Position numbers and translations under genes: made by a program | Notes under the pieces: model-generated | What the model was told of the DNA's origin: nothing | What the model saw: the letters and a program-made list of their open reading frames with translations, nothing else | Database searches by the model: none | NCBI GenBank assembly: GCA_046263195.1 | Contig: JBHELG010000039.1 | Span: 4,906-68,905, forward strand | DNA length: 64,000 nucleotides | From: Nitriliruptorales bacterium | Lineage (GTDB): Bacteria > Actinomycetota > Nitriliruptoria > Nitriliruptorales > JAHWKO01 | Direction: 5' to 3' | Shown: positions 8,545 to 48,735 of the stretch, in pieces | Numbering within the stretch: position 1 is the first letter of the stretch | How the letters are laid out: the number at the start of each line of letters is the position of its first letter

Positions 8545-9686
8545 GGGTAGACGCCGACCGCGGTCAGCCCGAGTGCCTCCTCGAGGCCCAGGAGGAGGTT
8601 CGCGTTCTGCAGCGCCTGACCTGCGGCCCCCTTGCCCAGGTTGTCGATCGCGCTCGTGACCACGACCCGGTGGGTCCGTTCGTCGACGACGGCGGAGATT
8701 TGGCAGCCGTTGCAGCCTGTCAGGGCCTTGGTGTGCGGGAAACGACCCGGCGGCAGCACGCGAACGAATGGTTCGCCGGCATAGCGGTCAGCCAAGGCCG
8801 CCGTCACCTCAGCGGGCGTGATGTTCTCACGCAGCTGCGCGTAGCACGTGGCCAGGAGCCCTCGTGCCATGGGGACGAGATGTGGCGTGAACGAGACCGG
8901 TCCGAGCTCCCAGCCCCCGAACTCGTCGAGCCAACGCTCGATCTCGATGGTGTGGCGGTGGGTGGGTGCGCCGTAGGCGGCGACGTCATCATGGACATGC
9001 GGGTGGTGCAGGGACTCCTGGAGGCGTCGCCCGGCTCCGGAGGTCCCGGACTTCGCGTCGACGACGATCGTGCCGGGCAGTACCAGCTCGGCAAGGGGCA
9101 GCAGTGCGAGCAGTGCCGCGGTCGGGTAGCAGCCGGGGTTGGCGACGATGGTGGCGCCCCGGATGGCAGGCCGGTTCCACTCGCTCAACCCGTAGACGGC
9201 CGGGGCGCCTTGGGCGGGCGCGGTCTTGGGTTGCCCGGGGAAGGACTGCAGGCCCGGAGGGCGGGGACTGACGAGACCGCGGGGGGGACGAGTACGCGAC
9301 CCGCTCGTGCCACCTGTGCGAGGGGCGAGGTCGGGATGGAGGTGGGACTCGCCGTACCAGACGGCGAAGTCAGCAGGATCGAGACGGAAGGCGGCGGACA
9401 GGTCCACGACCGGGGTTCCCGTCTCGTGCAGGGCCCCTGCCAGCTCCATCGCGGCTGCATGTGGTGTCGCCAGGAAGATGAGATCACAATCCGCGAGCGC
9501 CTCAACCTCGGGTGTGACGAACACCGCGTCGTCGTCGAGGTTCGGGAAGAGTTGGGCCACCGACTCGCCCACCTGACGGTGTGCGGCCACGACGGCGACT
9601 TCGAGGGCGGGATGTCCGCCGAGCAGGCGCAGCAGCTCCGCGCCCCCGTAGCCCGAGGCGCCAACTACCCCGACGGTGTGGGCCAT
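8541..9686 (-). CDS. argC: N-acetyl-gamma-glutamyl-phosphate reductase, carrying an approximately 42-codon repeat-derived insertion
   Basis: Start trimmed to ATG at 9686 (GGGAAGGA 5 nt upstream; MAHTVGVVGASGYGG NAD-binding motif). Catalytic PGCYPTA present. An extra segment lies between HLHPDL and AVYGLSEW. Confidence 0.9.
   Translation of the reverse strand: MAHTVGVVGASGYGGAELLRLLGGHPALEVAVVAAHRQVGESVAQLFPNLDDDAVFVTPEVEALADCDLIFLATPHAAAMELAGALHETGTPVVDLSAAFRLDPADFAVWYGESHLHPDLAPRTGGTSGSRTRPPRGLVSPRPPGLQSFPGQPKTAPAQGAPAVYGLSEWNRPAIRGATIVANPGCYPTAALLALLPLAELVLPGTIVVDAKSGTSGAGRRLQESLHHPHVHDDVAAYGAPTHRHTIEIERWLDEFGGWELGPVSFTPHLVPMARGLLATCYAQLRENITPAEVTAALADRYAGEPFVRVLPPGRFPHTKALTGCNGCQISAVVDERTHRVVVTSAIDNLGKGAAGQALQNANLLLGLEEALGLTAVGVYP
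9201..9326. repeat. hairpin-repeat family A, long form, inside argC (reverse orientation relative to the ribBA and priA copies)
   Basis: The plus strand reads GCGGTCTTGGGTTGCCCGGGGAAGGACTGCAGGCCCGGAGGGCGGGGACTGACGAGACCGCGGGGGGGAC. Its reverse complement aligns with the copies at 30302 and 36607. Boundaries were inferred from the ArgC alignment and are approximate. Confidence 0.7.
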
Positions 9687-9721
9687 GACAATCCTTCCCA
9701 AGATCCATTCGACGGTTGGAT

Positions 9722-9743
9722 AAACATACAGCATCATGCATCG
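9722..9743. promoter_or_regulatory. candidate ArgR operator (ARG box-like, ATGCAT core) upstream of argC
   Basis: AT-richer patch AAACATACAGCATCATGCATCG lies 36-57 nt upstream of the argC start. The ATGCAT half-site resembles actinobacterial ARG boxes as I recall them. Confidence 0.3.
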
Positions 9744-9858
9744 TTCGGCGAGGGCGCAGAGGACGGATCGTCCAGGCGAGAGGCGCCGCGGACAGGACGT
9801 GCTCCTTGTGCACGGGGCCGCGCCGGAGCACGCCCCTCAGCCGGGTGATACTGAGTCC

Positions 9859-45377: not shown

Positions 45378-48300
45378 GACGATGCCGCGGAGGCGCGTCG
45401 GTGGTACTCCTGCAGCGACCCAACCCCGAGTCGACCATGCCGGAGCGACTCGATGCCCTGAATGGCCGCGAGGATGCCTGACATCGTCGTTATGCAGGGC
45501 ACGCCGTGGGAGACGGCGGCGGTGCGGATGAGGTAGCCGTCGCTGCGGGGACCACGTCCGAAGGGGGTGTTCAGGACCAGGTCGACCCTTCCGCTAGCGA
45601 TGAGGTCGACGACGTGGGGCTCCCCGGTGGCCCCGTCGGAGACCTTCGCCACGTGCGCCGCGGGGACGCCCGCCCGTTGCAGAACCTCGGCCGTGCCCTC
45701 CGTCGCGATGATGTCGAAGCCGAGGTCGACGAGGCGCTTGACCGGAAACACGATTGCGCGCTTGTCGCGGTTCGCGACCGACACGAACACGGTGCCCCGG
45801 GTGGGCAGCACCATAGTGCCGGTGCCAGCCTGGGACTTGGCGAATGCCGCGCCGAAGCTCGAGTCGACACCCATGACCTCTCCGGTGGAGCGCATCTCCG
45901 GTCCGAGGACGGAGTCCACACCGGGGAAGCGGTCGAAAGGCAGCACCGCCTCCTTTACCGCCACGTGTTCGAGCCGCAATCCGGTGGTGGCGTCAACGGG
46001 GGGAAGCAGTGGCGTGGGAGATGTGCGAAGTTCGGCGAGCCGCTCACCGATCATGACGCGGGCTGCCACTTTCGCGAGTGGCACTCCGGTGGCCTTCGAG
46101 ATGAACGGCACCGTTCGCGATGCCCGGGGGTTCGCCTCGATGACGAAGATGACGTCGTCTTTGAAGGCGAGTTGGACGTTGATCAGGCCCTGAACGCCGA
46201 GACCGGAGGCGATGGCCTCGACATGGCGGCGGATGGTCGCGAGGTGCCCCTTGCCCAGTGTGTAGGGGGGGATGACACAGGCCGAGTCGCCGGAGTGGAT
46301 GCCGGCCTCCTCGATGTGCTCGAGCACACCCGCCACGTAGAGCTCCTCTCCGTCGTACACCGCGTCGACGTCTATCTCTATGGCGTCCTCGAGGAAGCGA
46401 TCTATGAGGATCGAGGGATGCCAGGCGGCGGCCGCGATCGCGCCGGCGAGGTAGTGCTCGAGCATCTCCTCGTTGTAGACGATTTCCATGGCTCGTCCGC
46501 CCAGGACGTAGGAGGGGCGCACGAGCACGGGATAGCCGATGGTCTGCGCGATCGCCTTCGCCTGCTCGAAAGAGCTGGCGACGCCCCCCGGCGGGGTCGG
46601 GATGCCTAGCTCTGCCAGGAGGGCCCCGAAGCGACCACGGTCCTCAGCGGCGTCGATGGCGTCTGGGGACGTGCCGAGGACCTTCACCCCGGCTCTTTCG
46701 AGCGCGCTCGCGAGCTTCAGTGGCGTCTGTCCTCCGAACTGCACGACCACCCCGACGGGCTGCTCCCGGTCACAAACTGCCAGCACGTCCTCGAGGGTGA
46801 GCGGCTCGAAGTAGAGCCGGTCGGCCGTGTCGTAGTCGGTCGACACCGTCTCGGGGTTGCAGTTCACCATGATCGTCTCGTAGCCGGCCTCCCGGAGCGC
46901 GAAGACGGCATGGACGCAGCAGTAGTCGAACTCGATCCCTTGACCGATTCGGTTCGGCCCGCTGCCGAGCACGACGATCGACGGGCGTGCCGCGCGGACG
47001 ACCTCGTCCTCCTCCTCGTAGGTCGAGTAGTGGTAGGGCGTGTAGGCCTCGAACTCCGCCGCGCACGTGTCGACCGTCTTGAAAACCGGCGCGATCCCGT
47101 GCTCCTGACGCTGGGTTCGCACGGCTTCTTCGCTCGTCTCGAGCAGGTACGCAAGCTGAGGGTCGGAGAAGCCGTCGCGCTTGGCCTCTTCGAGAAGGTC
47201 GCGTGGGATCGGGCTCGTGCCCCGGATCTGCTCGCGTCGCTCCACGAGCTGGGCGAGCTGGTCGACGAACCAGGGGTCGTAGCCGGTCAGCTCGGCGACG
47301 CGTTCGATGCTCCAGCCCCGAGTCAGAGCTTCGTCGACGGAGCGCAACCGTGCCGCATGGGGACGTCGCAGCAGCGCCGCTAGATTCTCGTCAGGAGGAG
47401 CATCCCCGTGCGGGCCGCGCTCCGGAGGGCCGGCACCGAAGCCGATCTGACCGTCCTCCAAGGAGCGGAGCGCCTTCTGGACAGCCTCTTTGAAGGTGCG
47501 CCCGATCGCCATGACCTCGCCGACGGACTTCATCTTCGTGGTGAGGGCGTCGTCGGTGCCGGCGAACTTCTCGAATGCGAAGCGAGGTGCCTTGACGACC
47601 ACGTAGTCGATGGTGGGTTCGAAAGCGGCACGGGTTCGGCGCGTGATGTCGTTGGCGATTTCGTCGAGGTTGTAGCCGATCGCGATCTTCGCGGCGATCT
47701 TGGCGATGGGGAACCCGGTGGCTTTCGAGGCGAGAGCTGATGATCGTGACACCCGCGGGTTCATTTCGATCACGAGTTGGCGGCCGGTCCGCGGGTCCAC
47801 CGCGAACTGCACGTTGGAACCGCCTGTCTCGACCCCGATGCGACGCATGACGGCAAAAGCTGCGTCACGCATCTGCTGGTACTCGCGGTCAGACAAGGTC
47901 ATGGTCGGGGCGACCGTGATCGAATCGCCCGTATGCACTCCCATGGGGTCGAGGTTTTCGATCGGGCACACGACGACACAGTTGTCGTGCAGGTCGCGCA
48001 TGACTTCGAGTTCGAATTCCTTCCAACCGAGAACCGACTCCTCCGCGAGCACCTCGTGCACGGGGGAGTCGGACAGGCCTTGACGGATCATCCGCCGCAG
48101 CTCGTCCGGATCTCGTGCGACCCCCCCACCCTTGCCTCCGAGCGTGAACGATGGCCGTAGCACGAGTGGGAAACCGAGGTCGGCGACGGCGTCGAACGCC
48201 TCCTCGACGCTACGGACGTAGCGCGAGCGCGGTACCTCGAGCCCGATCTCGGTGACCGCGTCCTTGAAGCGCTGGCGGTCCTCGGCGGTTCGGATCGCAT

Positions 48301-48661
48301 CGAGGCTGGCTCCGATCACCTCGACCCCGAAGTCCTCGAGGACCCCCCGCTCGGAGAGTTGCACGGCGAGATTGAGCGCGGTCTGCCCGCCGAGCGTGGG
48401 TAGGAGGGCGTCCGGACGCTCGCGTTCGATGACCGCTTGGACGGCATCAGGTGTGAGCGGCTCGATGTAGGTGGCGTCCGCAAAGTCGGGGTCGGTCATG
48501 ATCGTGGCCGGGTTCGAGTTCACGAGCACGACGCGCAGCCCCTCTTCACGCAGCACCTTGCAGGCCTGCGTTCCGGAGTAGTCGAACTCGCACGCCTGAC
48601 CGATGACGATCGGACCGGATCCGAGCACGAGGACCGAGCGAAGATCTGGTCGTCGTGGCAT
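45374..48661 (-). CDS. carB: carbamoyl-phosphate synthase large subunit
   Basis: 1095 aa with duplicated ATP-grasp halves and an MGS-like C-terminus. Confidence 0.96.
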
Positions 48662-48682
48662 GGCGTCCCTTGTCCGCTGAGC

Positions 48683-48735
48683 GAGGTCGTAGTGGCGGTC
48701 CTGAGCCTAAGAGGTCGTAGTAGCGGTCTTGGGCC
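48683..48735. repeat. two tandem GAGGTCGTAGT(G/A)GCGGTC(C/T)TG(A/G)GCC units (reverse orientation of the ACTACGACCTC-tailed repeats)
   Basis: Units lie at 48683-48707 and 48711-48735. They fill most of the 74-nt spacer between the small ORF stop (48736) and the carB start (48661). Confidence 0.65.

Follow-up and report, generated by a model that had tools for sequence, protein, structure and literature searches.

A dispersed hairpin repeat family inside and between housekeeping genes of a Nitriliruptorales bacterium

A 64-kb stretch of a Nitriliruptorales contig, taken from a metagenome-assembled genome (MAG) and referred to here as the window, contains a family of very small hairpin-centred repeats that lie both in intergenic spacers and inside genes. 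We found that the family is a dispersed mosaic hairpin repeat whose presence or absence is exact to the codon, which has neither target-site duplications (TSDs) nor terminal inverted repeats (TIRs), and which is restricted to a narrow clade. Five units sit in frame in four genes, namely argC, pspAB, ribBA (a long and a short unit in tandem) and priA. In the reading that we prefer and consider probable, these units make up a lineage-specific family of non-autonomous repeats of the type of repetitive extragenic palindromes (REPs) and Rickettsia palindromic elements (RPEs), moved in trans, and the genic copies are tolerated passengers.

Detection and build of the repeat family

The G+C content of the window is 65-72%, and its genes were placed by the G+C content of third codon positions and by Pfam matches. 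The original prediction, made from the sequence alone, counted at least ten related short elements in the 64 kb, and arm counts, profile hidden Markov models (HMMs) and a covariance model (CM) bear this out, with about ten copies or part-copies in the window and at least six in 41 kb of relatives. The arm GGCGGTCTTGG, allowing at most one mismatch, has 20 matches against 2.4 expected, a number reached in 0 of 100 shuffles, and a pairwise repeat search joins the copies as repeats D5, D6, D11, I1, I2, I7, I20 and I22. On the six best units, profile HMMs built from the copies reach E = 8e-16 to 5e-23, and the CM scores the short units at 42-67 bits. As a composition control we used 65 kb of syntenic DNA with a G+C content of 71-74% from three more distant Nitriliruptoria, including Egicoccus halophilus; it gave zero CM matches at E<=1 and a sole HMM match of 5.7 bits (E=0.8). 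Because GC-matched DNA is without copies, the repeat family is real and not a by-product of GC content, and the concern that the similarity might equal GC-rich chance is ruled out by the shuffles, the HMM and CM scores and this control. The units match no Rfam family at gathering thresholds.

The copies are described here as read on the strand that, for most of them, is mRNA-sense. A base unit of 51 nt opens with the G-rich head GGGYGGGWRR; the left arm GCGGTCTTGG, a loop of 5 nt and the right arm CCAAGACCGC come next, and the tail SGGCGGGACRRWT closes it. The two arms form a perfect stem of 10-11 bp, and the core GCGGTCTTGG-N5-CCAAGACCGC spans 25 nt, or about 31 nt with the tag. In the long form of 84-87 nt, a 36-nt hairpin module (GGGCC-NNN-GGCCC, flanked by G-runs) is nested in the loop. 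In RNA folds the inner GGGCC/GGCCC hairpin is enclosed by an outer stem of 11-13 bp, so that alignments and folds agree with the initial description of one family with a short hairpin and a long form carrying a nested inner palindrome. Besides the two ribBA units (Table 1), a copy in a spacer of the related sequence L125 has a folding z score of -3.0, and diverged copies range from about 0 to -1. Head and tail share a GGCGGGA direct repeat, and the unit ends are not inverted repeats.

There is a second head type, GAGGTCGTAGT(G/C), with GTAG at the foot of the stem. Exact matches to GAGGTCGTAGT number five, against 1.0 expected, and are found in intergenic copies only; the sequence of this GTAG subfamily is GAGGTCGTAG-T-S-GCGGTCTTGG. 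The heads and tails characteristic of the intragenic units are referred to as type I. Heads, tails and inner modules are mixed among units: in the array upstream of infC, unit G1 combines a GTAG head with a type-I tail, and the inner palindrome of unit G2 is a different one. This makes the family mosaic, as bacterial interspersed mosaic elements are. The independent unit lengths of 51, 36 and 72 nt are each a multiple of three, intergenic arrays included, and the arrays, which lie in operon spacers or at gene ends, have periods of 87, 72 and 36 nt.

Copies are present in independent assemblies, namely L121 (Logan SRR24716279), L027 and L031 (NEG bin15), L009 and L122 (GDC bin2), and L125. Type-I copies are 77-87% alike across genomes, on a par with copies within the window (75-88%). 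In a scan of genome contigs with GTCCCGCCSGCGGTCTYG, true copies among the matches listed were confined to L009, L027 and L031; the other listed matches were chance hits in unrelated GC-rich genomes, the pattern being too short. A scan of metagenome contigs with a two-arm pattern gave two matches, both chance and within one unrelated gene.

Since the window comes from a MAG, and since contig L031 begins inside a unit, one may ask if the segments are artefacts of assembly or binning. The chance of this is next to negligible: reading frames are intact across every insert, L121, assembled independently from a different sample, has a short copy at the same codon of priA, further copies occur in three more MAGs, and the presence of copies in several independent assemblies rules the artefact out. 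The L031 contig (NEG bin15, JALZEO010000147.1) starts within a repeat unit at positions 1-30 (GTGTCCCGCCCGCGGTCTTGG), which suggests that the repeats break short-read assemblies of these MAGs.

Codon-exact insertions in argC, pspAB, ribBA and priA

The identities of the four host genes were confirmed by Pfam, with domains on both sides of each insert. For every one of them we recovered relatives with 75-88% protein identity in which the site is empty and the codon boundaries are clean, and the inserted segments are likewise missing from more distant Nitriliruptoria and from homologues in the PDB. Given close orthologues with empty sites, sequence comparison indicates that the intragenic segments are insertions and not ancestral loops shared among orthologues, an outcome that would have undone the original prediction. 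The expectation that insert lengths be multiples of 3 also held in the orthologue alignments: the inserts measure 84 nt in argC, 54 nt in pspAB, 87+51 nt in ribBA and 87 nt in priA, all whole codons.

The argC gene occupies 8541-9686 on the - strand, and the head-to-tail G-rich strand of its unit is antisense to it. This insert is found only in the window; the site is empty in L126 (78% identity) and L125 (75%), and the insert is bounded by GTCG on one side and CAAG on the other. The copy was first placed at 9201-9326; the copy itself stands, but its extent does not, the remainder being a lineage-specific loop that relatives also have. The other intragenic copies were likewise found where they had been proposed, and the comparison with empty alleles moved their limits (from 18396-18445 in pspAB, 30302-30440 in ribBA and 36607-36692 in priA) to those of Table 1. 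The L125 PspAB protein has 189 aa with an empty site and the window protein is longer by 18 codons; 205 of its residues align to 188 positions of the Pfam PspAB profile. In the ribBA mRNA the short unit comes immediately upstream of the long one, and relative to L122 the insert comprises exactly 46 codons (51 + 87 nt) between GTG and CGN, the L122 allele reading ...YERLV joined directly to RRVVETH.

The priA site has three kinds of allele. The window carries the long form, the protein P0003 of L121 (76% identity, an independent Logan assembly) has the 51-nt short form at the identical codon, and P0002 of L120 (81%) and P0008 of L122 (76%) are empty. Between L121 and L122 the difference is exact, with 17 codons between TCC and GAG. 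No TSD was found in any of four filled/empty comparisons (priA in L121/L122, ribBA in window/L122, pspAB in window/L125, argC in window/L126), and at the priA junction at most a 2-nt CC is ambiguous.

Filled and empty alleles were found at six sites in all: priA, argC, pspAB, ribBA, the 3' end of fmt, and the argC-argJ spacer, the last with units of the second family described below. In L122 (3088-3295, GDC bin2, JALYGD010000167.1) an array replaces the fmt stop codon and lengthens Fmt by 72 residues, from about 307 to 379 aa; this array contains three copies of the 36-nt inner module that are 100% identical. The corresponding fmt end in the window (34249-34290) is empty. The family is one of a narrow clade, with sites that are polymorphic among close relatives and absent from more distant ones with otherwise the same operons.

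The inserts had been proposed to lie in loops or linkers, and alignments together with an AlphaFold check place them at the RibBA domain junction, in a variable loop of ArgC and in a CxxC loop of PriA. Residues 31-228 and 276-471 of RibBA align to residues 8-207 and 209-408 of Mycobacterium tuberculosis RibBA (4I14), and relative to that structure the insert fills the junction of the DHBP synthase and GTP cyclohydrolase II domains. PDB homologues of ArgC align on both sides of the site, and the length of the loop varies across 40 homologues. In PriA the insertion point falls between CxxC motifs two and three of the Cys-rich region, a stretch whose length also differs among homologues; the alignment to the Escherichia coli and Klebsiella PriA structures ends at CPRCD. 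The PspAB site is placed only through a gap in the Pfam profile match. In the AlphaFold models, mean predicted local distance difference test (pLDDT) scores are 84 for ArgC and 86.5 for PriA, falling below 50 at ArgC residues 126-158, which have no secondary structure, and at PriA residues 426-453. The models thus predict disorder for the inserts of ArgC and PriA and leave the host folds intact. As separate observations, the ArgC homologues P0129, P0130, P0137 and P0208 of other Nitriliruptoria have, in the same loop, insertions of 20-50 residues that differ and look unrelated, and at the 3' end of ribBA (29534-29720) the open reading frame (ORF) runs about 60 codons past the M. tuberculosis RibBA alignment (residues 472-531) as a Pro-rich extension that overlaps the start of ribH.

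Each intragenic copy leaves the host frame open, as had been noted at the outset. In the units, hardly any of the six frames contains a stop codon, so an open frame is close to automatic at such GC and mainly needs a length that is a multiple of three. One orientation and frame is used by four of the five intragenic units of the window and by the L121 copy, giving a peptide that starts G(R/W); a simple multinomial calculation puts at about 0.02 the chance that four of five units fall into a single one of the six options, and in it the tandem ribBA pair is perhaps not independent. Of the six frames, the preferred one is richest in Gly and lowest in charge, which fits selection on tolerability or an insertion-orientation bias. 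The argC unit has the opposite orientation and encodes a different peptide. Translational bypass or removal at the RNA level was considered and rejected as unneeded, the inserts being codon multiples with open frames and no stop at the take-off position.

This shared frame raises the question of whether the extra segments are protein modules selected for function, either as flexible linkers or as a recognition motif LPKTAGG/LAKTAGG, with the DNA similarity as a by-product. The same peptide frame is present in five of six intragenic units when L121 is counted, and the peptides are Gly-rich and linker-like. We regard such selection as very improbable, since the same DNA also occurs in non-coding spacers and, reversed and with a different peptide, in argC. 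Furthermore, the similarity is at the nucleotide level, third codon positions included (83-88%), the hosts are cytoplasmic enzymes without sorting signals, and orthologues at 75-88% identity lack the segments. The encoded peptide is also matched by no other protein: a word-index search was empty, as was an exhaustive phmmer search of 1.84 billion representatives at E<=0.001.

The preferred frame encodes LPKTAGG, LAKTAGG or LPKNAGG (window 30389-30439 and 18394-18447; L121 1641-1698). LPXTG and LAXTG, which these resemble, are sortase sorting motifs. A sorting role was considered for LPKTAGG/LAKTAGG and rejected; we judge the likeness a coincidence of the palindrome (CTT GGC TTG CCC AAG ACC GCC), and the host proteins are cytoplasmic.

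Intergenic copies and a second palindromic family

The intergenic copies lie between co-directional genes (Table 1), and several begin right at the upstream stop codon, with TGA followed immediately by GGGTGGGAG... Those adjoining a stop are the array upstream of infC, the copy in the spacer between pspAA and the M48 peptidase gene (in the window and in L125), and the decayed coaBC copy. A scan for terminators and promoters found none that coincides with a unit.

Table 1. Repeat units and related segments in the window (positions in nt; CM, covariance model; HMM, hidden Markov model; z, folding z score)
Feature	Position	Strand	Evidence and remarks
Long unit in argC	9213-9296	+	28 codons; HMM E = 3.5e-20; peptide RTRPPRGLVSPRPPGLQSFPGQPKTAPA
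Short unit in pspAB (18211-18834, -)	18394-18447	-	18 codons; HMM E = 8e-16; CM 60.3 bits
Long-like unit with GTAG head (GAGGTCGTAGTG), pspAA-M48 peptidase spacer	19752-19856	-	HMM E = 6e-18; just past upstream TGA
Partial head/tail duplicate (GACGGAGGCGGGAGGGACC) adjoining the pspAA-M48 unit	19858-19899	-	CM 15.5 bits, weak
Three-unit array filling the spacer from an unnamed gene (stop 27038-27040) to infC	26795-27037	-	Heads 87 nt apart
G1, short, GTAG head and type-I tail	26795-26850	-	CM 53.7 bits
G2, GTAG head, different inner palindrome GACAAGTCTTGTC	26851-26937	-	CM 42.1 bits
G3, type-I head directly past TGA	26938-27037	-	
Long unit in ribBA (29534-31129, -)	30302-30388	-	29 codons; HMM E = 5e-23; z -2.6
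Short unit in ribBA	30389-30439	-	17 codons; HMM E = 7e-18; CM 67.1 bits; 11-bp perfect stem, z -2.9
Long unit in priA (35827-37965, -)	~36601-36690	-	Net +29 codons, boundary within 3 nt; HMM E = 2e-19
Candidate decayed copy directly past the coaBC stop (TGA followed by GGGGTGCGAAAGGGGAGGAGCAGTCTTGG...)	39170-39232	-	HMM E = 4.6, not significant
Family 2, a full unit plus a partial one, past the pyrF stop	42690-42800	-	CM 22.7 bits
Two tandem half copies (right arm and ACTACGACCTC tail, = GAGGTCGTAGT on the + strand), 28 nt apart; pairwise repeats I7, I20 and I22	48683-48735	+	

The pspAA-M48 copy has an orthologue in the same spacer of L125 (1753-1836), which is diverged (75% identical) and whose stem shows a single double change, G:C to A:T; the partial duplicate next to it at 19858-19899 is not in L125. 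Upstream of infC an open frame spans the array from the upstream stop. This array had been proposed at 26795-26989, and its existence holds while its end lies further on, at 27037. The half copy proposed at 39195-39215 is not significant, and it looks like a decayed copy after the coaBC stop. At 48683-48735, where a copy had been listed, there is indeed repeat material and no full copy: the two half copies consist of right arm and tail only, lie between a small ORF and carB, and are oriented opposite to the other intergenic copies. The small ORF (48736-49043, -) encodes about 100 aa (MSDPQAPVRTRPVRVKVFLRNGCIVEGEV...) between carA and carB, and the half copies follow its stop; carA and carB are usually adjacent.

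The CM further revealed a second, related palindromic family, which is located right after stop codons. Its unit consists of GGCGCTCC-GCA-GGAGCGCC, followed by ACGAGAGGA, GCTGTCTTAGG...CCTGAGACAGC and GACGG, and its second hairpin, GCCGTCTTRGG...CCTARGACGGC, or with its variants GC(C/T)GTCTTRGG...CCTRAGAC(G/A)GC, differs from the stem of the first family by a swapped G:C/C:G pair. Family 2 is found in three places in L125 (within 2763-2830 and 7055-7193). The L125 argC-argJ spacer holds two of its units, and in the window argC and argJ overlap. Within that L125 spacer the family forms a 72-nt tandem of 1.9 copies at 97% identity.

The placement of the intergenic copies could mean that the units serve above all as RNA or DNA signals under selection, such as 3'-end stabilisers, processing sites, attenuators or protein-binding sites, and that the genic copies regulate their hosts. 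Copies lie immediately past stops between co-directional genes in the pspAA-M48, infC-upstream, coaBC-metK and pyrF-downstream spacers, a placement that Di Nocera et al. (PMC3733652) also give for REPs which they take to be transcribed. The pspAA-M48 copy has been kept in place in the window and L125 with its double change in the stem, and ten of 12 copies share one orientation relative to transcription. We nevertheless consider a primary signalling role quite improbable. Covariation is not significant, stems have decayed in many copies, with z near 0, no T-tract terminator coincides with the units, and Rfam holds no match. Importantly, the sites are polymorphic in close relatives and absent from distant ones with the same operons.

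Mode of spread and comparison with known repeats

In our preferred reading, the units would move, or would recently have moved, as single-stranded hairpins by means of a trans-acting enzyme. The likeliest candidate is a transposase of the REP-associated tyrosine transposase (RAYT)/IS200 type, an HUH tyrosine (Y1) enzyme. The RAYT/IS200 family is capable of precise insertion and excision without TSDs and recognises GTAG-tagged hairpins (PMC3733652, PMC3116915). Survival of a genic copy would require a length divisible by three, a frame free of stops and a permissive site, either a loop or a linker; the survivors would be transcribed and translated as Gly/Pro/Arg-rich disordered loops, and would be tolerated passengers and not functional modules. 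With the 36-nt module nested in the loop the unit measures 87 nt, and tandem amplification of this module also occurs. Intergenic copies may also serve as 3'-end RNA hairpins, as REPs do.

Several points weigh against this reading. No transposase domain was found among the window ORFs scanned, and none was seen in the 64 kb here and the roughly 40 kb of relatives that were read, with no RAYT-directed search made; all genes annotated in the window are housekeeping genes. The type-I heads of the intragenic units (GGGAAG, GGGTGA, GGGAGG or GCGAAA) are without the GTAG tag that RAYT-type REPs carry, and no target motif is shared across the five sites with known empty alleles. In the outer stem of 13 copies 83% of cells are paired, and the covariation score was matched by 88 of 500 shuffles; there is therefore no sign of selection on the structure itself. 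That the inserts are kept in mRNA and protein we infer from the intact frames and codon-multiple lengths. Finally, the PriA tree groups the window (long, P0001) with L120 (empty, P0002) and L121 (short, P0003) with L122 (empty, P0008), so that each sister pair has one filled and one empty allele, and this pattern requires that the unit was precisely lost twice or was gained twice at one codon. The head variant GGGYGGGTGAGCGG is common to both PriA copies, and for that reason we slightly favour a single ancestral priA insertion followed by precise losses.

Spread and loss might also proceed without a dedicated transposase, through hairpin-promoted replication slippage, template switching or microhomology gene conversion at head-like G-rich sites. 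Such a process is consistent with the lack of a TSD, a TIR and a conserved target motif. The right flanks at several targets resemble the head GGGCGGG (pspAB GGTCGGGTC, ribBA CGGCGCGTC), and at the fmt end the empty window sequence GGGTGGTTGA is similar to GGGTGGGAGA, the head fused at this point in L122. The perfect threefold repetition of the 36-nt module and the 97% identity of the 72-nt unit over its 1.9 copies are typical of slippage. On the other hand, slippage leaves the dispersal to unrelated loci, in both orientations, unexplained, and type-I units are as similar between genomes (77-87%) as within one; the head-like flanks are short, GC-rich and known from five sites only. Taking both sides together, we think spread by these processes alone unlikely, and regard it as the leading alternative to our preferred reading.

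The family may instead be a codon-phased modular mobile element that is specifically adapted to life inside genes, because the unit lengths are 51, 36 and 72 nt, the frames are mostly stop-free, a Gly-rich frame is preferred, and gain or loss at priA is codon-precise. We put this forward tentatively and think it rather unlikely. Since type I has no GTAG, TIR or TSD, the mover could also be a mechanism not yet described for REPs.

The original prediction compared the units to RPEs, and the comparison is apt, the same behaviour being well documented outside Rickettsia too (PMC3733652). RPEs in Rickettsia conorii are about 150 bp long and fall into ten families, with 44 insertions in metabolic genes (PMC10969869). 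Di Nocera et al. (2013, PMC3733652) report intragenic REPs tagged with GTAG or CGTC from Opitutus terrae, R. conorii (RPE-4/-6), Thauera and Xanthomonas; genic REPs encode 20-30 residues, many of them in replication or repair genes (PMC3733652). Delihas (2011) gives further cases, and describes mycobacterial interspersed repetitive units (MIRUs) as an actinobacterial small repeat (PMC3184786).

In the summaries of Ogata et al. (2000) in PMC10969869 and PMC3733652, RPEs resemble the present units in being palindromes that are intergenic as well as in frame in unrelated housekeeping genes, that encode a conserved peptide at positions compatible with the host fold, and that are polymorphic between related genomes. 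According to the same summaries, RPE-1 differs in being about 100-150 bp long, AT-rich and from an obligate intracellular alphaproteobacterium, whereas the units here have 51-87 nt and a G+C content of 70-80% and belong to a free-living member of the Nitriliruptorales. The nested 36-nt loop module and the head/tail direct repeat are specific to the present family, and no relatedness in sequence to RPEs is expected.

REPs are similarly G+C-rich palindromes of 20-40 bp with GTAG at one foot, a tag that only the intergenic subfamily has here, and they lie just past stops between co-directional genes as singles, dimers or arrays (PMC3733652; REP/RAYT and REPIN, PMC3116915). Genic REPs are found in replication and repair genes, and priA is hit here. 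In contrast to REPs, the intragenic subfamily lacks GTAG and has the head GGGYGGGWRR, and the intragenic share of five in about 12 units is far above the usual. Actinobacteria have 0 occurrences in the main text of Di Nocera et al. (PMC3733652).

MIRUs, as portrayed in the account of Supply et al. (1997) in PMC3184786, are likewise G+C-rich, actinobacterial elements of 40-100 bp that lie between genes in operons with open frames, abut or overlap the ends of neighbouring genes, and occur as tandem arrays that differ in copy number from strain to strain. On that account, and comparing by description only, they differ from the present units in being intergenic and not inside conserved enzymes, and in having no perfect 11-bp hairpin with a nested module. 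[quoted passage not shown] They are defined by TIRs and TSDs, both lacking here. An assignment to the MITE class was therefore rejected: the unit ends form a direct repeat (head GGGCGGGA..., tail ...GGCGGGAC), the palindrome is internal, and there is neither TIR nor TSD.

A search of the open-access literature found no such family described in Actinobacteria or Nitriliruptoria, in line with the initial remark that no equivalent was known in a high-GC actinobacterium. In-frame genic palindromic repeats are already established in other phyla, and the present family adds a phylum for which no prior report was found. RPEs are selfish palindromic DNA that survives in essential genes as harmless translated loops, and their best-known carriers so far are Rickettsia, which are reduced and intracellular, together with a few Proteobacteria and Verrucomicrobia; if confirmed genome-wide, the present family would extend the phenomenon to Actinomycetota. 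Were the density in the window, one in-frame unit per 13 kb, to hold genome-wide, there would be hundreds of intragenic copies, exceeding the reports for Rickettsia. Filled and empty alleles of ArgC, RibBA, PriA, PspAB and Fmt in close genomes offer a natural experiment on new disordered loops and C-terminal extensions, and insertion or loss that is codon-precise and free of TSDs would suit a search for the enzyme that moves REP-like hairpins. For work with MAGs the units are a warning, as they can break assemblies, inflate protein lengths and mimic lineage-specific protein features.

The window as a whole consists of conserved housekeeping operons, nearly all on the - strand. The gene order comprises argH-G-F-D-B-J-C, an ABC transporter, a 1463-aa HYR-repeat protein, a histidine kinase, pspAB, the M48 peptidase and pspA, as well as pheT/S, rplT, infC, hisG, ribH, ribBA, fmt, priA, metK, coaBC, pyrF/D, carB and carA. 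The ORF of the 1463-aa protein (11868-16259, -) has at least ten HYR domains and an Ig-like domain, and it explains the 237-nt periodic direct repeats D1-D4, which are unrelated to the hairpin family.

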